DNA of 64,000 bases from Glaciecola sp. (GCA_964219355.1 CAXPOZ010000003.1:219678-283677); one strand, 5' to 3'. Counted from the stretch's first letter, positions 3,287-18,424 are shown. Notes: generated by a model from the letters alone, not told the origin. Program-made: numbers and translations.

Positions 3287-5941
3287 TTAGAGCGCCTGCA
3301 GACGCTCCCGCACTTTTGCGATGGCATCATTCGCGGCATCCGGGTTCGGCCCACCGCCATGGGCGAGATCCGGCTTGCCACCGCCGCCCTTGCCGCCAAG
3401 AGCTTCAACCGCGAGTTTGACCAGTTCGGGCGCGCCGATACGATCCGTCAGGCCGTCCGAGACGCCGATCGACACACTCGCCTTGCCTTCATCCGTCGAG
3501 ATGAACGCGGCAATTGCATTGTCGCTGGCTTTCTTTGCGTCAGCGATCAGTCCCCGGAGTTCCTTTGCCGGAATGCCTTCGAGGACCTGACCGGTGAAGA
3601 CGATATCGCCGATCGTCTCGGTTGCGGGCTTGCCGCCACCGCCGCCCATGGCCGCCTTTTTCTTGGCCGCGACGAGTTCCTTCTCGAGGCGCTTCTTGTC
3701 CTCAAGCAGCGCCGTCACGCGGTCGGCCACATCGCCGATCTTGACCTTGAGCGTGCCGGCCAGCCCGGTTGCGATCCCGGCCTGCTCCTTAAGATAATCG
3801 CGTGCCGCCTCCCCGGTCACGGCCTCGATCCGGCGAATGCCGCTGGCGACCGCCGTTTCGGTCGTGATGACGAAAAGCGCGATATCGCCTGTGCGGGTCA
3901 CATGGGTGCCGCCGCAAAGCTCCATCGAGTATGGGCGCTCAGGGTTCTCGAAGTCATCGCCAAGCCTCAGCACACGGACTTCGTCTTCATATTTCTCACC
4001 GAAGAGAGCCATGGCGCCGGCTTCAATCGCGTCATCATAGGGCATGACGGAGACAACGCCTTCATCATTCTGACGAATGACGCGGTTGACCTCGGCTTCG
4101 ATAAGATCGAGTGCTTCGCGACTGACGCCGGAATTATGCGAGAAGTCAAAGCGGAAATTGTCCGGGCCCACAAAGGAGCCTTTCTGGACGACATGGTCGC
4201 CCAGATGCCGCCGCAGGGCCGCGTGAACAAGGTGGGTGGCGGAGTGGTTCCGCTTGATCCGTGCCCGGCGCTCATGATCGATTTCGAGTGTGACGACATC
4301 GCCCACTTTCAGCGTGCCCTTTTTGACGACAGCGTGATGGACGTGAAGCGCGCCTGCGCCTTTCTTGGTGTCACGGATGATCAGCTCCGCACCGCCCGCG
4401 CTGACAGCTCGTCCCGCATCGCCTGCCTGCCCGCCCGATTCAGCATAGAATGGCGTCTGATTGGCAACGAGGCTCACCTCATCGCCTTCAGAGACGCTTT
4501 CGACGCGCGCGCCATCTTTCACGAGTGCAGTGACAGCGCCTTCGGCTCTTTCATGGACATAGCCGATAAATTCCGTGGGCGCTGTATCTGAGAGAATATC
4601 GAACCAGACCTTGTCGCTGGCGGCATCGCCTGAGCCTGCCCAATTGGCGCGCGCCATTTCTTTCTGGCGGGTCATGGCGGCATCAAAGCCAGCCTGATCA
4701 AGGCCATAGCCCTGCCGCCGTAACGCATCTTCGGTCAGATCGAGCGGGAAGCCGAATGTGTCATAGAGCTTGAAGGCCGCCTCGCCGGGCAATGTGCCGC
4801 CATCAGCCAGTTTGCTGGTTTCCTCAGCGAGGAGTTTCAGCCCGCGGTCGAGCAGATCGGCGAATTTCTCTTCTTCCACGCGCAGCGTGTCACGCACGAG
4901 GCTCTCGGCGCGCGGCAGCTCCGGGAAGGCGCCGCCCATTTCATCAACGAGGGTTGGCACCAGACGCGTCAGCAACGGATCCTTCGCCCCTAGCGCATGG
5001 GCATAGCGCATGGCCCGGCGCATGATCCGTCTCAAGACATACCCCCGGCCCTCATTGGACGGTGTGACGCCATCAGCAATCAGGAAGGACGAGGCGCGCA
5101 GATGATCTGCGACGACCCGGTGCGAGACGAGATCATCGCCTTCGGGTTTGCGGCCCGTCAGCTCAACCGACGCATTGATCAGTGTCTGGAAGAGATCAGT
5201 CTCGTAATTGTTGTGAATGCCCTGCAGCACCGTTGCGACTCGCTCGAGCCCCATGCCGGTGTCGATCGAGGGTTTGGGCAAATCCGTCTGCTCGCCGCCT
5301 GCATGTTTCTCGAACTGCATGAAAACGAGGTTCCAGATCTCGATGAACCGGTCGCCATCCTCATCCGGGCTGCCCGGCGGGCCGCCCGGAATGTGGGGCC
5401 CATGATCGTAGAAAATCTCGGAGCACGGACCGCAAGGGCCAGTATCGCCCATTGACCAGAAATTGTCAGAGGTCGGAATGCGGATGATTTTTTCATCTGC
5501 AAATCCCGTGACCTTCTTCCAAAGATCAAATGCCTCATCATCGGTGTGATAGACAGTGACCAGCAGCTTTTCCGGCGGCAGGCCGAAAGTACCAGTCAGC
5601 AGCTCCCAGGCATTGAGGATCGCCTGTTCCTTGAAATAGTCGCCGAAGCTGAAATTCCCCAGCATCTCGAAAAAGGTGTGGTGGCGCGCCGTATAGCCGA
5701 CATTGTCGAGGTCGTTATGCTTGCCGCCGGCCCGGACGCATTTCTGCGAGGACGTCGCGCGGACATAGCTGCGCGTTTCCGTTCCCGTGAACAGGTTCTT
5801 GAACGGCACCATGCCCGCATTGACGAACAGCAGCGTCGGGTCATTCTGCGGCACGAGCGGCGCAGACGGCACGATTTCGTGATCGCGGTTCGCGAAAAAG
5901 TCGAGAAAGGACTGGCGGATATCATTGACGGATGTGACCAT
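3287..5941 (-). CDS. alaS: Alanine--tRNA ligase
   Basis: [51 protein letters not shown]-terminal GGKGGG. Confidence 0.99.
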
Positions 5942-5947
5942 CCGCGC

Positions 5948-5976
5948 GGCTTAATCGGCCCCGCGCCCTTGTGCAA
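5948..5976 (-). promoter_or_regulatory. Promoter of alaS, probably leaderless
   Basis: Minus strand TTGCAC-N17-TAAGCC, then 6 nt to the ATG; no SD. Confidence 0.45.
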
Positions 5977-6018
5977 TCGGGCTTGCGACGATGGGCGGCT
6001 TCGCCATATTCGATAGAT

Positions 6019-6579
6019 ATGCGCGCACCCATCTTCTTCCTCGCCCTAATGCTCACCGCCTGCAGCGGCCAGCCCGATTACCGGGCTGAAAAACAGCCGC
6101 CGGAAACGGTCCCCCATGTCGATATCGAGCGCTATCAGGGCCTCTGGTATGAGATCGCGCGCTATCCCAACCGTTTTGAAGACACCCCCGATTACATCTG
6201 CACGGCGGTAACAGCCGAATATGCCATTCGCGAGGACGGCAGGATCGATGTCATCAATACCTGCCGGAAGGACACGCCCGAAGGCGAGGTCGACGTCGCA
6301 AACGGCGTTGCCCGGGTCGTCGGCGGGAATGGCGCGAAGCTGAAGGTCAAATTCGCGCCCGGCTGGGTGCCGTTTGCGAGCGGCGATTACTGGGTGCTCG
6401 ATCTGACAGAGGATTACTCCGCCGCCCTCGTCGGCAGCCCGGACGGCAAATATCTCTGGCTGCTCTCCCGTACCCCGATCATCCCGGCCGAGACGGGCCG
6501 GCGCCTGATGGAGGCCGCCCGCGCGCGCGGCTATGAGACGGATCCCCTGCAATTCACGTTGCAACCGCTCGGCGGTTAG
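6019..6579 (+). CDS. blc: Bacterial lipocalin lipoprotein
   Basis: Lipobox LTAC; VDIERYQGLWYEIAR, DYWVLD, YLWLLSRTP lipocalin motifs. Confidence 0.9.
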   Translation: MRAPIFFLALMLTACSGQPDYRAEKQPPETVPHVDIERYQGLWYEIARYPNRFEDTPDYICTAVTAEYAIREDGRIDVINTCRKDTPEGEVDVANGVARVVGGNGAKLKVKFAPGWVPFASGDYWVLDLTEDYSAALVGSPDGKYLWLLSRTPIIPAETGRRLMEAARARGYETDPLQFTLQPLGG

Positions 6580-8357: not shown

Positions 8358-8566
8358 GGCCGGAGGCTGAATTGATCCGCAAGAAAGCTCAAGAAGTCAT
8401 GGGGCACCGGCTGGCCTCCCCGGCCCTCACGAAAACGGGCCTGCGGCTTATCCTGCAATATGTGGCGGCGCCAATTCTCGCGCTGCTGGCGCTGATCGAT
8501 CTCGGCCTGTTTCTCGTTTTCAAATATGCCTTCGGCCAGTGCTATGGCGTATGGTGCTGGTTTTAA
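8351..8566 (+). CDS. Small membrane protein (start uncertain)
   Basis: One long hydrophobic helix ending CYGVWCWF; convergent with sufA. Confidence 0.45.
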   Translation: MAWPEAELIRKKAQEVMGHRLASPALTKTGLRLILQYVAAPILALLALIDLGLFLVFKYAFGQCYGVWCWF

Positions 8567-8928
8567 GCGTCAGCTTTCGCCGGGACGATCGTCACGCTCT
8601 CCCCACAGCCGCAGGCATCGGTCTGGTTCGGATTATTGAAGACAAACCGGCTGGAGAGTTTCTCCGTCACGAAGTCGATTTCCGTCCCCAGTAGGAAGAG
8701 GATTGCCTTGGGGTCAATCAGGATGGTGATGCCGTTCTCCTCGACAACCTCGTCGAGCGGCCCCTTCTCGGTGGCGTAATCCATCGTGTATTCCATGCCG
8801 GCACAGCCGCCATTTTTCACGCCGATCTTAACCCCGATGAAATTCTCATCAGCGGATGACATGATCTCCGTCATGCGATCGGCGGCGCGGTCGGTCAGTG
8901 TCAGGACTTTAGGTCTCGGTCGCGCCAT
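8563..8928 (-). CDS. sufA: A-type Fe-S carrier SufA/IscA
   Basis: GVKNGGCAGMEY...FNNPNQTDACGCGES; ATG overlaps the upstream TAA (TAATG). Confidence 0.93.
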   Translation of the reverse strand: MARPRPKVLTLTDRAADRMTEIMSSADENFIGVKIGVKNGGCAGMEYTMDYATEKGPLDEVVEENGITILIDPKAILFLLGTEIDFVTEKLSSRFVFNNPNQTDACGCGESVTIVPAKADA

Positions 8929-9368
8929 TACAGCCACCCCAGTTCCAGTTTTGCTTCATCCGACATGCGGTCCGGCGTCCAGGGCGGGTCAAAAGTCATC
9001 TCGACCTCGCACCGCTCAATGCCGTCAACGCGCGTGACCGCCTGCTCGACCCAGCCTGGCATTTCGCCCGCGACGGGACAGCCGGGCGCAGTCAGCGTCA
9101 TCTCGATCTTCACATCGCCGGGCTCGTCATAATCGACCTTGTAGATCAGCCCCAGCTCGTAAATATCGACCGGGATCTCCGGGTCATAGACGGTCTTCAG
9201 AGCCTCAACGATCTTGGCCGTCATGTTTGACAGGCGAATCTCGTCCGGGCTCAGCGCTTCTGGCGAGGCCGGCGGCGAAGGCGCGTCTGTCCGGCCACCC
9301 GACAGATCGATCATGTCGCGGCCGCCTGTTTCAGGGTCATATGTCTGTTCGTTGTCGGTCATACTCAT
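8928..9368 (-). CDS. sufT: SUF system protein SufT (DUF59)
   Basis: LKTVYDPEIPVDIYELGLIY...MTLTAPGCPVA...FDPPWTPDRMSDEAKLELG. Confidence 0.92.
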   Translation of the reverse strand: MSMTDNEQTYDPETGGRDMIDLSGGRTDAPSPPASPEALSPDEIRLSNMTAKIVEALKTVYDPEIPVDIYELGLIYKVDYDEPGDVKIEMTLTAPGCPVAGEMPGWVEQAVTRVDGIERCEVEMTFDPPWTPDRMSDEAKLELGWL

Positions 9369-10585
9369 CCCAACATGTCGTGTGCCTTGGCGCAGGCGTC
9401 AACCAGCGCCTCAATATCGGCATGGGTGTTATAGGCGGTGAAGCTGGCCCGCGCGGTCGCGGTGACGCCGAGCTTCTTCATCAAGGGTTGACAGCAATGG
9501 TGCCCGGCACGCACGGCCACCCCCTGCCGGTCGAGAATGGTCGAGATATCATGCGGGTGTGCCTGCCCGAGATTAAAGGCAATGACCGGCCCCTTATCGG
9601 GTGCCGCACCATAGACGGTTGCGATATTCGAGCGCCCCAGCGCCTCCATCGCGTGATCAGTCAGCTCTCGCTCATAGGCTTTGAGGCCCGAAATATCCTG
9701 TTCCATCAGCCAACGGAGCGATGCGCCTAGCCCAATCGCCTCCATGATGGGCGGCGTGCCTGCCTCAAACCGGTGTGGCGGCTCATTATAGGTAATGCGC
9801 TCCTGCTCGACGATGTCAATCATCTCGCCCCCGCCGCGATAGGGCGGCAACCGGTCAAGGAGTACTTTACGGCCATAAAGGACGCCAATGCCGGTCGGAC
9901 CATAGGCCTTGTGCCCGGTCATGACATAGAAATCGACGCCGAGATCCTGCACATCGACCGGTCCGTGCACGGCATGCTGGCAGCCATCGGCAAGGAACAG
10001 CGCGCCATGCTCATGGGCAATTGCCGCCATCTCTTTGATCGGCGGAAAGGCTCCCAGCACATTTGACTGTGCCGACATGGCCACCAGTTTCGTGCGAGAG
10101 CTGAACATCTCGCGATAGGCGTCAAGATCGACATTACCGTCGGCATCGATATCGAGCCATTTGAGGACCGCGCCTTTTCGCTCGCGCAGGAAATGCCACG
10201 GCACGATATTGGAGTGATGCTCCATGACCGAGAGGATGATTTCATCGCCCTCGCCGATCTCCGCCTGCCCCAGCACGTTCGAGACAAGGTTCATCGCATC
10301 CGTACCGCCCATGGTGAAGATGACTTCATCCGCACTCGCCGCGTTCAGATAGGTCTGCGCCGTCTGGCGAGCCTCTTCAAAGGCGGTAGTCGTCTCATTG
10401 GAAAGAGCATGGAGGCCGCGATGCACATTGGCATAGCTGTGCGTCATCAGCCGCGTCATCTCATCGATCAGCACACGCGGTTTCTGGACGCTCGCCGCAT
10501 TGTCGAGATAGACCAGCGGCTTGCCGTAAACCTCACGGGAGAGGATCGGGAATTCGGCCCGGAATCTGGCGGGATCAAAACTCAT
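9365..10585 (-). CDS. sufS: Cysteine desulfurase SufS (class II)
   Basis: YLDNAAS.QKP, YANVHRG, TGHK.YGPTGIG, RAGHHCCQPL. Confidence 0.97.
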   Translation of the reverse strand: MSFDPARFRAEFPILSREVYGKPLVYLDNAASVQKPRVLIDEMTRLMTHSYANVHRGLHALSNETTTAFEEARQTAQTYLNAASADEVIFTMGGTDAMNLVSNVLGQAEIGEGDEIILSVMEHHSNIVPWHFLRERKGAVLKWLDIDADGNVDLDAYREMFSSRTKLVAMSAQSNVLGAFPPIKEMAAIAHEHGALFLADGCQHAVHGPVDVQDLGVDFYVMTGHKAYGPTGIGVLYGRKVLLDRLPPYRGGGEMIDIVEQERITYNEPPHRFEAGTPPIMEAIGLGASLRWLMEQDISGLKAYERELTDHAMEALGRSNIATVYGAAPDKGPVIAFNLGQAHPHDISTILDRQGVAVRAGHHCCQPLMKKLGVTATARASFTAYNTHADIEALVDACAKAHDMLG

Positions 10586-11133
10586 TCGAGGTCCATCAGC
10601 TCCCTGACCACACTTTCGCGGCTTTTCATGCCAGCGGCGCGGCCTTCCTCAATCGCGATAATGGCGGGCACGCCCCGCTCAGCGCGGTAAAGCGCCCAGG
10701 CGGCCCCGGCCCTGTTGCCCGATGCGCAATGGAGCAGGATCGGATAATCGCCTGCCGTTTCCAGCCGCTTGATCAGTTTGGGGAGGATGTCGGGTATATC
10801 CTCGGCATCGCGCGGCATGGGGATGCTGACATAGAGCAGGCCCAGCGCCTCAGCGGCAGCTTTCTCTTCAGCGACACCTGATTCATTGGGCTGACGCAAA
10901 TCGATCAGGGTCTTGAACCCGGCCGATTTCGCGCGCGCCACACCATCATCGGAGAGCCGCCCGCCAATTCCGATATTGGGCGCAATACGGACGTAATTGA
11001 CCACAAAGGACATATCCTGATCGCCGGTCGGTGCGGAAACACCATCCTCTGTGACCTGATAAGGCGTCGAGACCATTTGCGCCGCCGCAGGCGTCGCCAT
11101 CATGCAGGCCGCAATTGCCAGCCATCTGATCAT
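10582..11133 (-). CDS. DUF442/TIGR01244-type sulfurtransferase or PTP-like protein with signal peptide
   Basis: GFKTLIDLRQPNE, HCASGNRA (CX5R loop); Sec signal ending PAAA-Q; ATGA overlaps on both sides. Confidence 0.8.
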   Translation of the reverse strand: MIRWLAIAACMMATPAAAQMVSTPYQVTEDGVSAPTGDQDMSFVVNYVRIAPNIGIGGRLSDDGVARAKSAGFKTLIDLRQPNESGVAEEKAAAEALGLLYVSIPMPRDAEDIPDILPKLIKRLETAGDYPILLHCASGNRAGAAWALYRAERGVPAIIAIEEGRAAGMKSRESVVRELMDLE

Positions 11134-12314
11134 GACATGCCTCCTTCGCTGAAAAAACCGGTGAACGCGTCGCGCAACTGGGTGTTTTCAAGTTCGTCCA
11201 GCACTTCGGCACTGAAGGCGTCGATCAACAGCCGTTGCGCTGCCGCCTCATCTAGTCCCCGCTGGCGCAGATAGAACAGGGCCTCCGCATCGAGGGCGCC
11301 GACCGTGTTGCCATGCGCGCATTCGACATCGTCCGCATAGATCTCAAGCTCAGGCTTCGCATAGACAGTCGATGCACCTGAGAGCACCAGCGCGTGATGC
11401 GCCATCTGCGCATCGGTCTGCTGGCCATCGCGTTCGACAAGAAACTTGCCCTGAAAGACACCGCGAGCGCGGTCTTCGGTGATACCCTTGACGAGCTGAC
11501 GCGTCACCGCACCCGGCACGCCATGTGTGACATGGCTGGTCAGATCATTGTGACGTGCACCGCTTAAACGATAAAGTCCGTCAAGGCGTGCCCGCCCTGT
11601 ACCCGCATAATCTACGTGTGTTTCATGCCGGGAGAACGCTGCCCCGCCTGCAAGGGTGAGTTGATGCAGCTCTGCATCCTCTCCGATAGAGATCATGCTT
11701 GTCCCGACACTGACGGCCTCGTCAGCAGCAGGCTGGAGGATCACGCGCGTGACCTTCGCACCCTTGCCGATGACAAGATCGGTCAGGCTGTTCACGAATG
11801 GAGCACCCGTTAGCCGGTGGGTTTCAATCAGCGTGACCTTAACGCCCGGCGCAACATGGATTTTCACACGATCCGCGTGAGCACCCTGCCCCTGGCTGAG
11901 ATGCCGGATGAAGAGCGGCGCCTCGAGGCTTTCCTCTATACCGATATCAAGCGTGCGCGCCGATGTGGCAAGCGAAGCCAAAGGCGCATCGGGGATCAAC
12001 CGCGGTGCTGGATCTTTCATCTGCACCCGGATCGAGACCGGCAGGCCCGCCGGCCCTCGCACCGCGCCATTGGCGATGACAATCTCATATCCGCCGAGCG
12101 CCGCCAGCAACGGCTCATCATCTGCAGCGGTATAATCATAGGCTGCGGAGGGCTGACGCGCCTCCTTCAACGCAGCGCGCAAATCGGACCATTTCCATTC
12201 CTCGACCCGGCGGTTCGGCAGGCCGCGCGACCGCAAAGCCTCAAGCAGCGCACCGTCGGGCAGTTGCGCAGCGAGACGTTCCTCCGCCGTGGTGAGTTGA
12301 AGTTGCGTGCTCAC
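11130..12314 (-). CDS. sufD: Fe-S assembly protein SufD
   Basis: GLPNRRVEEWKWSDL, GVFQGKFLV, AKPELEIYADDVECAHGNTVG. Confidence 0.95.
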   Translation of the reverse strand: MSTQLQLTTAEERLAAQLPDGALLEALRSRGLPNRRVEEWKWSDLRAALKEARQPSAAYDYTAADDEPLLAALGGYEIVIANGAVRGPAGLPVSIRVQMKDPAPRLIPDAPLASLATSARTLDIGIEESLEAPLFIRHLSQGQGAHADRVKIHVAPGVKVTLIETHRLTGAPFVNSLTDLVIGKGAKVTRVILQPAADEAVSVGTSMISIGEDAELHQLTLAGGAAFSRHETHVDYAGTGRARLDGLYRLSGARHNDLTSHVTHGVPGAVTRQLVKGITEDRARGVFQGKFLVERDGQQTDAQMAHHALVLSGASTVYAKPELEIYADDVECAHGNTVGALDAEALFYLRQRGLDEAAAQRLLIDAFSAEVLDELENTQLRDAFTGFFSEGGMS

Positions 12315-13061
12315 TTATGCTGCCTCGGTGAATTGTTCGTACCCGCCCTCTTCGAGTGCGCGCGCCAGTTCGGGCCCGCCGGATTTAACGATCCGCCCCC
12401 CGGCGAGAACATGCACCGCATCGGGTTTGATATAATCGAGCAGGCGCTGGTAATGCGTGATGACGAGAAAGCCGCGCTTCTGCGACCGCAGCGAGTTGAC
12501 GACCTCACCAACCATTTTCAGTGCGTCGATATCGAGCCCTGAATCGGTTTCGTCCATGATCGCAAAGCGCGGTTCGAAGAGAGCCATCTGCAGCATTTCC
12601 ATGCGCTTTTTTTCACCACCAGAATATCCGTCATTGAACGGACGTTTGAGTTTCTCAGGGGTGAGCCCTACCACTTGCGCCTTTTCGCGGAAGAGTTTGA
12701 GAAATTCAGCTGCTGACATCTCCTCTTCGCCGCGTGCGCTGCGCTGAGCATTCAGCGCCGTGCGTAGGAAATTCATTGTCGCCACACCGGGTATTGCGAC
12801 CGGCGACTGGAACGACAAAAAGACGCCCTTGGCGGCCCGCTCATTCGGATCGAGGTCCAGAAGGTTTTCACCATTGAGGGTGACGCTTCCCTCCTGCGGC
12901 GCGTATCCTGGTCGGCCCGCAATCGAGTAAGACAGCGTCGACTTGCCCGACCCATTTGGCCCCATGATCGCGTGAACCTCGCCTGCCGGCACGTCGAGCG
13001 ACAGGCCGTTGAGGATCGGATTCCCCTCAATCGTGAGGTGGAGGTTATTAATGTTCAGCAT
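12315..13061 (-). CDS. sufC: Fe-S assembly ATPase SufC
   Basis: GEVHAIMGPNGSGKSTL, YSGGEKKR, DETDSGLDIDAL. Confidence 0.97.
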   Translation of the reverse strand: MLNINNLHLTIEGNPILNGLSLDVPAGEVHAIMGPNGSGKSTLSYSIAGRPGYAPQEGSVTLNGENLLDLDPNERAAKGVFLSFQSPVAIPGVATMNFLRTALNAQRSARGEEEMSAAEFLKLFREKAQVVGLTPEKLKRPFNDGYSGGEKKRMEMLQMALFEPRFAIMDETDSGLDIDALKMVGEVVNSLRSQKRGFLVITHYQRLLDYIKPDAVHVLAGGRIVKSGGPELARALEEGGYEQFTEAA

Positions 13062-13426
13062 TAGTCAGTATCTTTCATTTTTGGCTCGACGATCAGATAT
13101 TCGGTCGTCGTTTCGCCAGTATTCATGACCTCATGAACGGTGCCGTCGCTCCACCATTCTGCGCCCGCTTTGGTCTCGATCTCTCTCGTGCCATTTGCAT
13201 CTGTGATGCGCTGTATACCGCCCTTCAGGATATAACCCCAATGCGGTGCGTGGCGGTGTTTCTCGTGCCCAACACCGGGCGGGAACGTACAGCGCAGAAC
13301 CCGAACCCGTTCATTTTCACGCACCAGTTCACAGACATTCTCACCGTCCCACCCCGCAGCAAGCGGATCGGGCAGTTCGGGTTGAGTACCGATCAACACA
13401 AGTGAAATGAGGGCGCTGGTGATCAT
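13061..13426 (-). CDS. Exported cupin-domain protein
   Basis: Hydrophobic N-terminus; PGVGHEKHRH...GG....H cupin motif. Confidence 0.75.
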   Translation of the reverse strand: MITSALISLVLIGTQPELPDPLAAGWDGENVCELVRENERVRVLRCTFPPGVGHEKHRHAPHWGYILKGGIQRITDANGTREIETKAGAEWWSDGTVHEVMNTGETTTEYLIVEPKMKDTD

Positions 13427-13878
13427 TCGGCCACCTCTTCCGGGTAGAGCGTATTCTGGTCATGGACCAGCCGCCAAGCGCCGTCCTCCAGCCGGAAGAC
13501 CAGAAGCAACCAACGCTCGCGCGGTGCGCCATCTGGGGTGTCGCGATATTGATAGCGGGTCAGCGCCATGGAGAGGTCTTCGCCTTCGACAATGCGGATA
13601 ATCTGCGGCGTCCAGACCCATTGATCGTCTGCGAACCATTCCTTGTGGAAAGCCACGACATTCGAAACGCCCGTCACCTCTTCTCCACCCGGGAAGATGA
13701 CCTGCAGGTCGCCATCCGTCAGTGTCAGGGTCGATTTGAGGGTTTCAAGATCGCGGCCCGCGACCGCGCCCAGATGAGTCTCGACTGCCGTTCTGAAATC
13801 AGGGCGTGCTGTTTCAGCCTCACCGGAGCAGGCGGCGAGGATCGGCAGGAGCAGGAGGAATGTAAGCTGTCTGAGCAT
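13423..13878 (-). CDS. NTF2/SnoaL-like lipoprotein
   Basis: Lipobox LAAC; C-terminal VFRLEDGAWRLVHDQNT. Confidence 0.78.
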   Translation of the reverse strand: MLRQLTFLLLLPILAACSGEAETARPDFRTAVETHLGAVAGRDLETLKSTLTLTDGDLQVIFPGGEEVTGVSNVVAFHKEWFADDQWVWTPQIIRIVEGEDLSMALTRYQYRDTPDGAPRERWLLLVFRLEDGAWRLVHDQNTLYPEEVAE

Positions 13879-14147
13879 TATTCGTCTCCCTCACCGGGCA
13901 GGCCGGCGCCCTTGATATATTTTGCCGGGGCGAGATTGAGCAGCAGCGCTGTCACGAGCAGAGACACCCCGCCGCAGACGGCATCGACCGGAATACCGGC
14001 AAAACCCGCGCGCAGGGCTGTGATCCGCAGATTGACGAAAACCACAGCCAGCAGGACAGCGAAGATCGCATGACCAACCGGCGAGGCCGGCAGCACGAAA
14101 GCCCGCTCCCAGCCGGCAGTGCCTTTTTTGAAGAGGTGGTTGTTCAT
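13878..14147 (-). CDS. Small two-TM hypothetical protein
   Basis: 89 aa; TAA overlaps the next ATG (TAATG). Confidence 0.6.
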   Translation of the reverse strand: MNNHLFKKGTAGWERAFVLPASPVGHAIFAVLLAVVFVNLRITALRAGFAGIPVDAVCGGVSLLVTALLLNLAPAKYIKGAGLPGEGDE

Positions 14148-14257
14148 CAGAGACCCCGCCCATACCCACGCAGGAAGGCATCGGCCCTCATGCCAGCATC
14201 GGATGCCAAAATGGACGACTGCATACTGACTAAATCTGGAAGAAAGATATCAGACAT
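14147..14257 (-). CDS. 36-aa small ORF (MSDIFLPDLVSMQSSILASDAGMRADAFLRGYGRGL)
   Basis: Manual translation: fills the 14148-14264 gap, starts 7 nt after the upstream stop and ends in TGA overlapping the next ATG (TGATG). Confidence 0.4.
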   Translation of the reverse strand: MSDIFLPDLVSMQSSILASDAGMRADAFLRGYGRGL

Positions 14258-14264
14258 CTTAAAC

Positions 14265-14678
14265 CTATTCCTTCCCGATCAGGTCTATAGACACATTTTC
14301 AAACCCGGCGGATTGAATTTCAGCCATAAGTTTGACGAGAGTGGATGTTGAGGCCCCACTCTCCGCAGCAATACGAATTAGATCTGATGCGCCGATCTTC
14401 CTCTCAAATAACAGCTCGCGAGCATCACCGGGCTGAACAACGTCACCATCGACCTCAATTTGGTCCGATGCGGTTATGGAGAAAACAATAGCCGCCTCAA
14501 TCTGCTGAAGCGTCACCGTAGGCTGCGTAGGCTGCGTAGGCTGCGTAGGTTGCACTTCAGACTCATTCGTATAGGCATCAACTGCACCCACTAGAAATCC
14601 TGCGCCAAATGAGCCTGCATCACACCCATTCAGTGCGAACCCAAGAACGGGCAATAGCCATCCAATTCTCTTCATCAC
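14265..14678 (-). CDS. Lipoprotein with ExbD/TolR-like C-terminal domain and QPT linker
   Basis: Lipobox ALNGC; [12 protein letters not shown]; [31 protein letters not shown] matches the ExbD periplasmic-domain pattern; GTGA overlap with the sufB stop. Confidence 0.7.
14518..14553. repeat. 9-bp in-frame tandem repeat GTAGGCTGC x3 plus one variant copy
   Basis: gtaggctgc gtaggctgc gtaggctgc gtaggttgc; encodes (QPT)4 on the minus strand. Confidence 0.9.
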
Positions 14679-16207
14679 CCCACACTCCCCTCTAGGCTCA
14701 CAGCGACGAGCTTCTGCGCCTCGACAGCGAATTCCATGGGCAGTTCCTGCAGAACTTCCTTACAGAAACCATTGACGAGGAGCGCGACGGCCTGTTCCTC
14801 ATCAAGCCCACGCTGTTGCGCATAGAAAAGCTGATCTTCTGAGAGCCGCGATGTCGTTGCTTCATGCTCCAGGATTGCAGAGGACGTCTTGTTCTCGACA
14901 TAAGGAACGGTATGCGCGCCGCAGTTTGAACCGATGAGAAGGCTGTCACATTGCGTGAAGTTCCGCGCATTCTCCGCCTTGCGGCCAATCGAGACGAGCC
15001 CTCGATAGGTCTGATCGGACTGGCCCGCCGAAATCCCCTTGGAGATGATCCGTGAGCGGGTGTTCTTTCCCAGATGCAGCATCTTGGTACCAGTATCCGC
15101 CTGCTGATGATTATTGGTGATGGCGATTGAGTAGAACTCGCCCTGACTGTCATCACCGCGCAGGATGCAGGAAGGATATTTCCACGTCACCGCAGAACCG
15201 GTCTCGACTTGTGTCCATGACACCTTCGAGCGGTCACCCCGGCAATCGGCGCGCTTAGTCACAAAATTATAGATGCCGCCTTTGCCGTCCTTGTCGCCCG
15301 GATACCAGTTCTGGACGGTCGAGTATTTGATTTCGGCATCTTCCAGCGCGACAAGCTCAACGACCGCCGCATGAAGCTGGTTCTCGTCCCGCATGGGCGC
15401 GGTACACCCCTCCAGATAGGAGACATAGGCGCCTTTATCGGCAATGATCAGGGTACGCTCGAACTGGCCGGTATTGGCCTCATTGATGCGGAAATAGGTC
15501 GACAGCTCCATCGGGCAACGCACACCTGGCGGCACATAGACGAAAGTGCCGTCCGAGAAGACGGCGGTGTTGAGGGTCGCAAAGAAATTATCCGAGGCCG
15601 GTACGACCGAGCCGATATATTCGCGCACAAGATCGGGATGCTCACGAATGGCTTCCGAGATCGACATGAAGATGACCCCGGCCTTCTCCAGCTCCTTCTT
15701 GAAGGTCGTTGCGACCGAGACGCTATCAAAGACCGCATCAACGGCGACGCCCGGTTTCGCGCGCGCATCGCCCGGCGTCTCGCCAGCGCCTTCGACGCCG
15801 AGCAGGACTTCGGCTTCTTTCAGCGGGATACCGAGCTTTTCGAAATCGGCGAGGATTTCGGGCGGCACGTCATCAATCGACTCATATTTCGCGCCCGATT
15901 TGGGTTCGGCGTAATAGTAGTGGTCCTGATAATTGATGGGCGGATATTTCACCTTCTGCCAGTCCGGCTCTTCCATCTCCAGCCAGCGGCGATAGGCCTT
16001 CAGCCGCCAGTCGAGCATCCATTCGGGCTCTTCCTTCTTGGCCGAGATGAACCGGACCGTGTCCTCAGAAAGCCCCTTGGGGGCCTTCACGGACTCGATA
16101 TTGGTCGAAAAGCCGTATTTATAGGTTTCGAGATGGCGGACCGTGTCGACGGTTTCCTTCTCGATGCCTTCCTTGACGGCGAGTTCCGGTTCAGTCGTAT
16201 TCGTCAT
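14675..16207 (-). CDS. sufB: Fe-S scaffold SufB (alternative TTG start 16219)
   Basis: [52 protein letters not shown]. Confidence 0.98.
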
Positions 16208-16226
16208 AAAGACCGACAATCTTTCC

Positions 16227-16685
16227 TTATTTCACAGCGCTGATGGCCTGCATCACCTTGGCCGCGCAATCTCGGCGGGTTGCGATTTTCTCATCGCGAT
16301 TCTCTGGATGGTCGATCTCTGCCGCCCATGCCTCGATATCCGCCTTGAGAGCCGAGATCTTTTCATCCGCTCCCGTCTCTTCGGCGGCAGGTTTCAGTTT
16401 TTCCTCGAGCGCCTGTTCCCAGATCGCCGTCACTTCTTTCGCCGTGTCGCGGGCCTTGCGGATTGTTGGCGGCGCCTCACCGCCCCGCTCTTCAGCACGG
16501 GCTTCGAGTTCCGCCAGATCGATCTGCGCCAGCGCGACACAGCGGCTCAGCGTCTCGACCTTCTCTTCGGACAGCTCTCCTGCAGCAAGGGAGATCAGTT
16601 CTTCAGGGGCCGGCTGCGCCATAGCTGTGAAGGGAATACTCGCCGTCAGGCAGGCAGCAGCACACATGATCAATTTCATCCTCAT
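16227..16685 (-). CDS. Exported helical hypothetical protein
   Basis: Signal peptide ending AMA-Q; two Cys in the mature part; ATGA overlap with the nifS stop. Confidence 0.7.
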
Positions 16686-17833
16686 GCGACATTCCTCTCC
16701 GCAATTCGCTGAAACTCATTCTTCCACAAACGCAGGAACATATCGGCATCGGCCATCGTGCTGGTCCAGCCGAGCGAGACGCGGATCGCCGAATTCGCCT
16801 CCTCCTCGCTGGCGCCCATGGCACCCAGCACGCCGGACTGGCGCACCTTGCCGGAGGAGCAGGCAGAGCCTGCCGAGATCGCGATCCCGCCCAGATCCAT
16901 CACCATGACTTGCGTTTCCGATCGGAACCCCGGCGCGGAGAAACAGCTCGTATTGGGCAAGCGCGGGGCATTCTGCCCCCAGATGATCACGCCATCCGGT
17001 AGTCCAGATTCGATCCGGTCACGGATCATGGCAAGCTCGGCATATTCTTCAGGCCGGGCCAGTTTCGCGGCATGTGAAAATCCGGCGATGGCGATCAGGT
17101 TCTCGGTCCCTGCCCGGCGGGACAGCTCCTGCCCGCCGCCGCGCAAATATGGTGCGAGTGCAAGCCCCGGCTTGATGACCAATGCCCCGACGCCTGCCGG
17201 CCCGCCAACCTTATGGGCACCAAGGCTCATCATGTCGACGCCCATCTGGCCGAAATCGAGCGGCAGCTTACCAAAGCCCTGCACCGCATCGACAAAAACA
17301 TGCCCGCCCTTGGGCCATGCCAGAGGCCCGAGCTTGCCAACCGGCTGGATCACGCCTGTCTCATTATTCGCAAGCATGACAGCGAGCAGGAAGGCGCCTT
17401 CCGTCACCTGATCATATCCGGCAAGCCGGTCCGCCAGCCATTCAAGATCGATCACGCCATCACGGGTGACGGGCACGGTTTCAACCGTGACGCCTGCTGT
17501 ATCGGCAAGCCCCTCGGCAGCCGCTTTCACCGCATCATGTTCGATGGCGGAGACCATCAGTCGCCGCACCTTCATCGGGCCATGAACCGCGCCGTGAAGC
17601 GCCATGTTGATGGCTTCGGTGCCGCCGCCGGTGAAGATGACACCTTCCTTGGGTGCGCGGACGGTCTCGGCAATCACGCCGCGCGCGTCCTCCAGGATTT
17701 TCTTGGCCGCCCGTCCCTCTGAATGGGTCGAGGACGGATTATGCGCGCCCTTCATGACAGCGATCAGCGCGTCCCGTACGCCGGGGCGCAGCGGGCTCGT
17801 CGCATTATGATCAAGATAAAGGCGGTCAGGCAT
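16682..17833 (-). CDS. iscS: Cysteine desulfurase, NifS/IscS-like (class I)
   Basis: Start MPDRLYLDHNATSPL at 17833; LGAHKVGGP, GGGQE..RRAGTEN, SAGSACSSG. Confidence 0.93.
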   Translation of the reverse strand: MPDRLYLDHNATSPLRPGVRDALIAVMKGAHNPSSTHSEGRAAKKILEDARGVIAETVRAPKEGVIFTGGGTEAINMALHGAVHGPMKVRRLMVSAIEHDAVKAAAEGLADTAGVTVETVPVTRDGVIDLEWLADRLAGYDQVTEGAFLLAVMLANNETGVIQPVGKLGPLAWPKGGHVFVDAVQGFGKLPLDFGQMGVDMMSLGAHKVGGPAGVGALVIKPGLALAPYLRGGGQELSRRAGTENLIAIAGFSHAAKLARPEEYAELAMIRDRIESGLPDGVIIWGQNAPRLPNTSCFSAPGFRSETQVMVMDLGGIAISAGSACSSGKVRQSGVLGAMGASEEEANSAIRVSLGWTSTMADADMFLRLWKNEFQRIAERNVA

Positions 17834-18269
17834 GCGCGGCCCTCTCTTTGAGAGGAGCATTTGCGCCCGCCGCGATATCAGCGAGGGTGATCCCGCCGAG
17901 ATAGGTTTCGATCTCGCGGTCGAGGCCGTGCCACAGCTTGTGGGTGAGGCAGCGTGTTGAGCTGCCCGTGCACCCCGTCGCCGCCCCCGGCACACAGGCC
18001 GTCGAGCGGATCTCTTCATCGACCGCATCGACGATGGCGCCGACGGAAATCTCCGCTGAGGACTGCGCGAGCAGATAACCACCGCCTGCGCCACGCCGGC
18101 TGGTCACCAGCCCCGCTTTGCGCAACTGGCCGAAAATCTGCTCAAGGAAGGCCAGCGACAGCCCCTGGCGCACAGCAATATCGCTGAGCGGGACAGGCAC
18201 GTCCCCGCCGAAAGCTGCCATATCAGCCATGGCCGCCACGGCGTTGCGGGCGCGGGATGTCAGTTTCAT
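17826..18269 (-). CDS. iscR: Rrf2-family regulator, IscR-like
   Basis: MKLTSRAR.AV.AM.D.A, YLEQ-like FLEQIF, VTSRRGAGGGY, three Cys plus H (CVPGAATGCTGSSTRCLTH). Confidence 0.85.
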   Translation of the reverse strand: MKLTSRARNAVAAMADMAAFGGDVPVPLSDIAVRQGLSLAFLEQIFGQLRKAGLVTSRRGAGGGYLLAQSSAEISVGAIVDAVDEEIRSTACVPGAATGCTGSSTRCLTHKLWHGLDREIETYLGGITLADIAAGANAPLKERAAHA

Positions 18270-18424
18270 CGGGGCCTCTGAACTTCTGGTCGAGCATTTC
18301 TGGCCACGGCGCGAGAATGTGGTATAGGCCGCGGTCTTTGATAGGTCGGACATAAGAAATCCGACCATAATGGTCAACTTTCTGCGGTGAAGTTTTTCGC
18401 CGCCTCTAACAGTCTGGACGGCGA

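Follow-up and report, generated by a model that had tools for sequence, protein, structure and literature searches.

Two alphaproteobacterial isc-suf operons are the closest described counterparts of the locus reported here. In Rhodobacter sphaeroides the genes run iscR-iscS-sufB-RSP_0439-sufC-sufD-RSP_0433-RSP_0432-sufS and are co-transcribed (PMC6956336), and Caulobacter has a single iscR-led operon with one small non-suf open reading frame (ORF) between sufB and sufC, which reverse transcription PCR (RT-PCR) showed to be one transcript (PMC11475020). Variation of the embedded ORFs is mentioned in both papers without being analysed (PMC6956336, PMC11475020), and we found no comparative analysis of such ORFs in the literature on alphaproteobacterial isc-suf operons, where they are noted in passing. 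More generally, ORFans (genes without homologues beyond close relatives) have been shown to join native operons, use native promoters and come under purifying selection, with no functional tie needed ('The life-cycle of operons', Price et al. 2006, PMC1480536). Here we describe an isc-suf operon with seven extra ORFs on the minus strand of a 64,000-nt stretch of DNA (Glaciecola sp., GCA_964219355.1, CAXPOZ010000003.1:219678-283677). This whole stretch is called the window and all coordinates are counted along it; the genome under study is denoted G000 and its sister species G014. From comparison of the sequences we find it probable that this is an ordinary alphaproteobacterial isc-suf operon, that its internal junctions act in this bacterial order as permissive slots for small promoterless accessory genes, and that the seven extra ORFs are independent passengers.

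Fifteen consecutive ORFs run from iscR to sufA (18269 down to 8563), eight of them core genes and seven non-suf ORFs which we name insA to insG in the direction of transcription (Table 1). All eight isc-suf core genes lie on one strand in the expected alphaproteobacterial order, with Pfam matches to Rrf2/IscR, Aminotran_5 (NifS/IscS-like), SufB, SufC, SufD, SufS, SufT and SufA, and the iscR ORF contains the three Cys and one His of the cluster ligands in the run C-VPGAATG-C-TGSSTR-C-LT-H. The preliminary description of this DNA had already interleaved seven non-suf ORFs among the suf genes; all 15 ORFs were recovered on the minus strand where it had placed them, every stop/start overlap that it listed was present when checked base by base, and its alphaproteobacterial core order, iscR-nifS-sufBCDS-sufT-sufA, agrees with the published operons (PMC11475020, PMC6956336). 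By translation, the nifS start should be moved from 17821 to 17833, where it has an 8-nt overlap with the iscR stop (ATGCCTGA); hence 11 of the 14 junctions overlap, by 1-8 nt, and non-coding sequence amounts to 14 nt in 9.7 kb. Genome-wide, a start overlapping by 1 or 4 nt is found at about 12% of gene ends, and the binomial probability of finding at least 10 such junctions in 14 is 5e-7; this baseline is a crude one, and gene pairs within operons overlap more often. The same layout was seen in the independent genome G014 (SufB 99% identical) and is therefore no assembly artefact. The operon interior leaves no space for promoters except within coding sequence. A consensus promoter scan of the operon gave no promoter-like site, such a scan being uninformative for an alphaproteobacterium, and a terminator scan of the interior gave weak hairpins only and no strong or convincing terminator.

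We compared the whole operon with that of 51 further genomes from the same order, taking one genome per species: 15 share the genus of G000, 21 belong to its family and 15 to other families. With G000 the set counts 52 genomes. Core and insert identities were assigned by Pfam and NCBIfam profile cut-offs, and a junction was regarded as filled when the gap was at least 100 nt. Insert ORFs in the relatives were called on the same strand with GC3 (GC content at third codon positions) as weight; it should be noted that these calls are crude, hence the family counts are approximate, and that one cluster (FAM0) fuses the cupin and SnoaL families through fused ORF calls.

The core gene order was unchanged in all 52 genomes, while the DNA between the core genes differed widely. 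The gap between sufB and sufC ranged from -1 to 2948 nt, that between sufD and sufS from 5 to 1192 nt, and that between nifS and sufB from about -34 to 483 nt, apart from one genome with an unrelated 3.4-kb block; G000 ranks fifth among the 52 for extra DNA inside the operon. The sufB/sufC junction is the main slot, filled in 49/52 genomes and holding 115 of a total of about 171 insert ORFs. The other junctions were filled in 20/51 (nifS/sufB), 15/52 (sufD/sufS), 8/50 (sufT/sufA), 5/50 (sufS/sufT) and 2/52 (sufC/sufD) genomes. Same-strand ORFs span at least 80% of the gap in 96% of the occupied gaps, with a median insert ORF of 121 aa. The ORFs fall into about 92 families, 71 of them singletons; recurrent families were the exported cupin, RidA/L-PSP, DUF1330, a cytosolic cupin, a 'LYRPVG' protein, PNPOx-like proteins and glyoxalase. 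Thus one and the same interval flanked by core genes receives many different accessory families, as in a hot spot.

To see how far this pattern extends we searched for SufB and SufC as a pair across 140 alphaproteobacterial families, each represented by one genome; in 90 of these families both genes were on the same contig and strand. Outside the order the sufB-sufC gap was below 60 nt in 68/90 families and at least 100 nt in 16/90. With 49/52 inside the order, a filled sufB/sufC junction is therefore a property of the order and sporadic elsewhere.

Table 1. Features of the isc-suf operon in the window, listed in the direction of transcription.
Feature	Coordinates	Strand	Description
Candidate promoter/operator	18345..18377	-	5' of iscR; palindrome TTGACC-ATTAT-GGTCGG followed by ATTTCTTATGTCC
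iscR	17826..18269	-	Rrf2 regulator, PF02082 E 6.8e-34; ligand pattern Cys-x7-Cys-x6-Cys-x2-His
nifS	16682..17833	-	nifS/iscS-type cysteine desulfurase, PF00266; corrected start
insA	16227..16685	-	nifS/sufB slot; 152 aa, signal peptide, no Pfam family
sufB	14675..16219	-	SUFBD_core, E 1e-77
sufB 3' 'dock'	14675..14695	-	GAGGGGAGTGTGGGGTGATG; Shine-Dalgarno-like run in the last codons and stop/start overlap
insB + insC insertion	14150..14677	-	528 bp, bounded by TGATGAA direct repeat
insB	14265..14675	-	lipobox, PTQ-repeat linker, ExbD periplasmic domain PF02472, 27.1 bits (cut-off 25.4)
insC	14147..14257	-	36-aa ORF
insD	13878..14147	-	89 aa, two hydrophobic/transmembrane helices
insE	13423..13878	-	LAAC lipobox and SnoaL/DUF4440, above Pfam cut-offs
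insF	13061..13426	-	small cupin-like, hydrophobic N-terminus; stop overlaps sufC start (TAATG)
sufC	12315..13061	-	ABC_tran; no Shine-Dalgarno match of its own
sufD	11130..12314	-	SUFBD_core, E 2.5e-60
insG	10582..11133	-	signal peptide and PF04273/DUF442 (rhodanese/protein tyrosine phosphatase-like); ATGA overlaps at both ends
sufS	9365..10585	-	Aminotran_5, E 1e-134
sufT	8928..9368	-	PF01883; TIGR02945 158.6 bits (cut-off 143.4)
sufA	8563..8937	-	PF01521; start GTG 8937 or ATG 8930 (TAATG overlap with sufT stop)

The sister species G014 has neither insB nor insC; the indel, of 528 bp with clean breakpoints, starts right at the stop codon of sufB. The GC3 values of the two ORFs, 0.47 and 0.56, compare with 0.705 +/- 0.04 for the genome. 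We read the pair as a very recent foreign insertion, which would have entered G000 after the split from its sister species. Neither attC-like nor boundary repeats were found at the junctions, the operon having short chance-level repeats only. No recombinase or transposase gene was seen among the operon ORFs or the flanking ORFs, which encode a GNAT/FemAB-like protein, an alpha/beta hydrolase and a cytochrome b561-YceI protein. Lacking attC-like repeats as well as a recombinase or transposase gene, the array can be taken neither for an integron nor for a recognisable mobile element.

Blocks starting exactly at the sufB stop and bounded by direct repeats were found in three independent close pairs, G000/G014 (TGATGAA), G032/G036 (TGA) and G079/G122 (TGATG). 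Two more pairs, G020/G012 and G041/G074, also differ directly after sufB, and in the window the newest block adjoins sufB and the oldest adjoins sufC. These findings suggest, tentatively, that the sufB end with its Shine-Dalgarno-like run and TGATG could be a preferred site of capture, where blocks from other TGATG-coupled operons recombine by microhomology and the newest comes to lie next to sufB. On the other hand, selection for a stop/start overlap at both junctions would leave the same repeats, the G012/G009 pair has its indel at the sufC end instead, the sample is just 5-6 events, and no recombinase or repeat element accompanies them. Hence we hold this mechanism to be an uncertain and rather unlikely one.

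The end of sufB is itself conserved. The pattern GA(G/A)GGGAG-N8-TGATG is kept across the order, and the Gly codon at position -4 of sufB is GGG in 46/52 genomes, against 19% of Gly codons genome-wide. The sufB stop and a start codon share bases in 43/52 genomes irrespective of which gene comes next, and in the single genome without a sufB/sufC insert it is sufC itself that uses this start site. The conserved sufB 3' end would in this way offer a ready-made start site to any gene that lands behind it. Computed duplexes between Shine-Dalgarno and anti-Shine-Dalgarno sequences were about -6 to -12 kcal/mol for most genes of the operon, the Shine-Dalgarno-like run lying inside the upstream gene, while sufC (-0.9) and sufT (-3.0) have none. 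Since sufC has no Shine-Dalgarno sequence and in the window starts on the cupin stop codon, the essential genes downstream probably depend on ribosomes that cross the passengers; sufC translation in particular is probably reliant on ribosomes arriving through the passenger ORFs. Such a dependence would help to keep the passenger ORFs open.

Upstream of iscR the palindrome overlaps a -35-like hexamer, and a block of the form TTGACY-N5-6-RGTCGG(A/G)WWTC(C/T)TA is kept at this place in most of the 52 genomes. The palindrome resembles what we take to be the E. coli IscR type-1 site, and the conserved block is probably a putative IscR operator together with a -35 element. A second conserved block (GGCGCGTATAGCACGTTTT-like) was observed about 30 nt downstream of the first, in the window and at the equivalent sites in L031-L081. 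We propose that the passengers would be transcribed by read-through from this IscR-type promoter and translated by means of the Shine-Dalgarno-like runs embedded in the upstream genes and the stop/start overlaps. Their products would end up in the envelope, where their action would be independent of iron-sulfur (Fe-S) assembly.

Further, we examined the seven inserts one by one. None of them scored above an NCBIfam cut-off, and no paralogue of any insert was found elsewhere in the G000 genome. The exported cupin (insF) was found in 14/52 genomes and the SnoaL-type lipoprotein (insE) in 7 genomes, each within two genera; the cupin was always at sufB/sufC, and the SnoaL-type gene was there adjoining the cupin. 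On a tree of SufB+SufC+SufD+SufS from the 52 genomes these distributions require at least 6 and at least 5 state changes, and the ratios of non-synonymous to synonymous substitution rates (dN/dS) were 0.256 and 0.107 for cupin and SnoaL, respectively. insF scored 20.3 bits against Cupin_2, under the cut-off of 27.2 and thus outside the family by Pfam, and it is by its motifs (GHEKHRH, H..N) that the sequence suggests a metal-binding cupin. Homologues of insF elsewhere bear clear lipoprotein or signal sequences. Those that are 50-68% identical, in Novosphingobium, Alteromonas, Flavobacteriaceae and Alcanivoracaceae, have no suf gene within 6 kb, and in a tree with weak support such free-standing copies fall among those embedded in suf operons. 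We envisage the cupin and its SnoaL neighbour as old residents of the slot that have been patchily kept.

The two-helix protein insD would be of intermediate age: it is 96% identical in G014 (dN/dS 0.047) and has a counterpart, 37% identical, in the same slot of one other species (G011). insA and insG are 92-94% identical between the sister species and may have arrived in their common ancestor. insA is common only to G000 and G014 (92% identical, dN/dS 0.175) and is an orphan, as it matches only its own cluster among 5.8e9 proteins; its AlphaFold2 (AF2) model is a four-helix bundle with a predicted local distance difference test (pLDDT) score of 70.6, and comparison of this model with the PDB gave no match with E below 4. 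insG scored above the cut-off for PF04273 (42.4 bits, cut-off 26.1) and below that for TIGR01244 (50.7, cut-off 85.85), and has an HCASGNR loop. G000 and G014 alone have it inside the suf operon (dN/dS 0.082); its nearest other relative in the family, 47% identical in G023, and the sufB of that genome are on separate contigs. Between G000 and G014 dN/dS came to 0.05-0.26 for the five inserts that both possess, with 0.00-0.075 for the core genes; these inserts therefore encode real, constrained proteins. Taking ORFans as defined above, insA and insB belong to them and insE, insF and insG, which are members of wide families, do not.

No homologue of insB was found by word-seeded search. A HMMER scan of 1.84e9 representatives gave 3 weak matches to repeats in giant proteins and no donor, and the AF2 model (pLDDT 48) was unusable. 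The ExbD match is confined to the periplasmic domain (profile positions 42-123). We considered insB as the ExbD/TolR component of a Ton/Tol motor and rejected it, because a lipoprotein signal and the PTQ linker replace the N-terminal anchor and the neighbours are sufB and the 36-aa ORF. The linker is encoded by a perfect 9-bp tandem repeat of three to four copies (14517-14552), an array that could vary in length through slippage. As for insC, it has no Pfam or NCBIfam family and no relative among the 52 genomes, and its support consists of the open frame and the junctions only: it is preceded by GGAAGGAA and starts 7 nt past the insB stop, and at the other end its TGA shares bases with the ATG of insD. 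It fits a role as relay between insB and insD, and we suggest that, instead of encoding a functional protein, it probably serves as a translational relay or is a piece of a donor gene.

How the inserts came to stand together can be explained in more than one way. The preliminary description had offered an IscR-controlled envelope module and passive hitchhiking by acquired genes, to be told apart by comparing suf operons across relatives. That comparison, in which the core order is fixed, the inserts are interchangeable and the set is not conserved, favours hitchhiking, the families that pass through the junctions in the 52 genomes including a ParE module, RidA, DUF1330, glyoxalase and cytosolic cupins; the module as one set was not borne out, as the inserts vary even between sister species. 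That the exported inserts jointly form an IscR-controlled envelope module for iron, sulfur or oxidative stress, co-expressed with Fe-S assembly, would accord with the signal, lipoprotein or transmembrane sequences of the six sizeable inserts, with their tight coupling to the suf genes, with the putative IscR-type operator upstream and with the sulfurtransferase-type fold of DUF442. However, 5 of the 7 inserts are unique to the species pair or to G000, insB and insC are younger than the split from G014, the same slots in the relatives hold unrelated and often cytosolic or selfish genes, and relatives of the cupin and of DUF442 elsewhere do not stand beside suf genes; we consider such a module very improbable. 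The inserts had also been described as mostly exported. This holds for G000, where all six sizeable inserts have export signals, but not as a rule of the slot, since a hydrophobic segment is found in about 47% of the insert ORFs across the order; the exported bias therefore belongs to G000.

A narrower alternative has only the cupin and SnoaL pair as a selected suf accessory, for example as a periplasmic metal/redox enzyme pair during Fe-S rebuilding, with the others as passengers. Its recurrence in 14 and 7 genomes of two genera, adjacent and always at sufB/sufC, its dN/dS of 0.11-0.26 and the apparent coupling of sufC translation to the cupin ORF in the window argue for it, while the patchy distribution with its repeated changes on the tree, the weakly supported nesting of free-standing cupins from unrelated contexts among the suf-embedded ones, and the absence of both genes from many genomes of the same genera argue against it, and on balance it seems unlikely to us. 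Somewhat less doubtful, though still improbable, is that some of the extra ORFs, chiefly insC and perhaps insB, are insertion debris that happens to be open still. insC has no homologue or family and an atypical composition, and insB has no relatives and no confident AF2 fold; yet insB combines a linker and an ExbD match above the Pfam cut-off with a clean lipobox, its open frame of 137 codons is improbable by chance in DNA of 51% GC, and both ORFs are in register with the coupling junctions. The reading of the seven as independent passengers has its own difficulties. Six sizeable inserts all with export signals, against about 47% order-wide, have a nominal chance of about 0.01-0.02, so that the all-exported set in G000 could reflect a shared envelope role, and the recurrence of the cupin and SnoaL pair at one slot in two genera under purifying selection makes a functional tie to suf expression possible for that pair. 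In addition, internal promoters are conceivable here, as R. sphaeroides has one inside iscS (PMC6956336), and the crude insert gene calls in the relatives make the family counts approximate. Still, we regard independent passengers in permissive slots as the probable explanation.

Several other occupants of the slots deserve mention. Of the sufB/sufC inserts the most widely kept is RidA/L-PSP (PF01042), which is absent from the window; six genera have it, with 18 genomes in all (e.g. L052, L057, L062-L081) and at least 4 changes on the tree. RidA proteins shield enzymes dependent on pyridoxal phosphate (PLP), to which cysteine desulfurases belong, from 2-aminoacrylate; this insert may have a true functional link to suf. 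In 14 genomes from six genera a 97-aa DUF1330 protein (PF07045) sits in the nifS/sufB slot, where insA lies in the window. The sufB/sufC slot of G032 (L053, ~5700-6241) and that of G026 contain a ParE toxin (PF05016) and, upstream of it, a partner ORF, and in G032 the module is part of a 784-bp block absent from the very close relative G036. In G014 (L031) a 127-aa membrane ORF with a C-terminal CxxC...CxxC lies between sufT and sufA, where G000 has a plain TAATG overlap. Finally, a family of about 120 aa with the pattern 'LYRPVG..E......FPPRLPEQPIFYPV' and no Pfam match is found in the sufB/sufC slot of G007, G008, G034, G135 and G175; it may equal the small sufB/sufC ORF of Caulobacter annotated as 'ADP-ribosylglycohydrolase' (PMC11475020), in which case it would be the oldest passenger of the slot.

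Taken together, in one bacterial order the junctions inside an essential operon act as a landing site with a high turnover of small genes. Function should hence be inferred from operon membership with caution, as the suf neighbours are here mostly unrelated to Fe-S assembly. The locus also makes a tractable natural system in which to study gain of expression by ORFans, entrenchment driven by coupling and tolerance of small exported proteins. Further, we speculate that the last codons of sufB might serve as a recombinase-free expression dock, held against the codon preference of the genome, with possible capture by microhomology, stratified integron-like arrays and entrenchment as sufC loses its own ribosome-binding site. 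We put this forward with low confidence; if true, it would be a general route by which bacteria trial small new genes inside an essential, stress-induced operon.

Wedged ORFs and one-promoter gene arrays are known from other systems. The nqo/nuo operons of Paracoccus and Rhodobacter carry small unrelated reading frames between conserved genes, and the likeness to our locus is that small ORFs are wedged into an essential, conserved alphaproteobacterial operon, though a different one. In G000 itself a 141-aa ORF with a GFA domain (PF04828, E 1e-16) lies between nuoC and nuoD (contig C3:430529-430954), with a 3-nt gap on one side and a 1-nt overlap on the other; wedged passengers in this genome are therefore not confined to suf. 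Within 15 kb downstream of nuoD, that strand showed none of the large nuo genes that one would expect there. Integron arrays line up small promoterless genes, all in one orientation, after a shared promoter, the newest tending to be promoter-proximal. They differ from the present array, which has no integrase gene and no attC-like repeats and whose junctions are stop/start overlaps.

In R. sphaeroides, the isc-suf operon is like the one in the window in its core order, in having iscR first and in carrying extra ORFs at sufB/sufC and sufD/sufS; it differs in belonging to another order of bacteria, in its inserted families (with two Yip1 genes at sufD/sufS) and in having three inserts, compared with seven here (PMC6956336). 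The Caulobacter operon has one insert only, against the same seven (PMC11475020). As with pairs of ORFans and native genes, lineage-restricted inserts stand beside native genes, and would here be expressed from a native promoter; but in E. coli internal insertions are much rarer than additions at operon ends, whereas here the internal junctions are preferred and one of them is filled in 94% (PMC1480536). The hot spots of horizontal gene transfer (Oliveira et al. 2017, PMC5635113) share with the sufB/sufC slot an interval flanked by core genes, a high turnover of unrelated families and, often, the lack of mobile-element genes; they were however described within species and between transcription units, while the present slots are inside an operon, keep strand and coupling, and hold ORFs of the small median size given above (PMC5635113). 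Compared with all of these, what is new here is the slot's scale and lineage-specificity, the dock conserved at the sufB end, an ORFan insertion that appears freshly caught, and the likely entrenchment of passengers via coupling.

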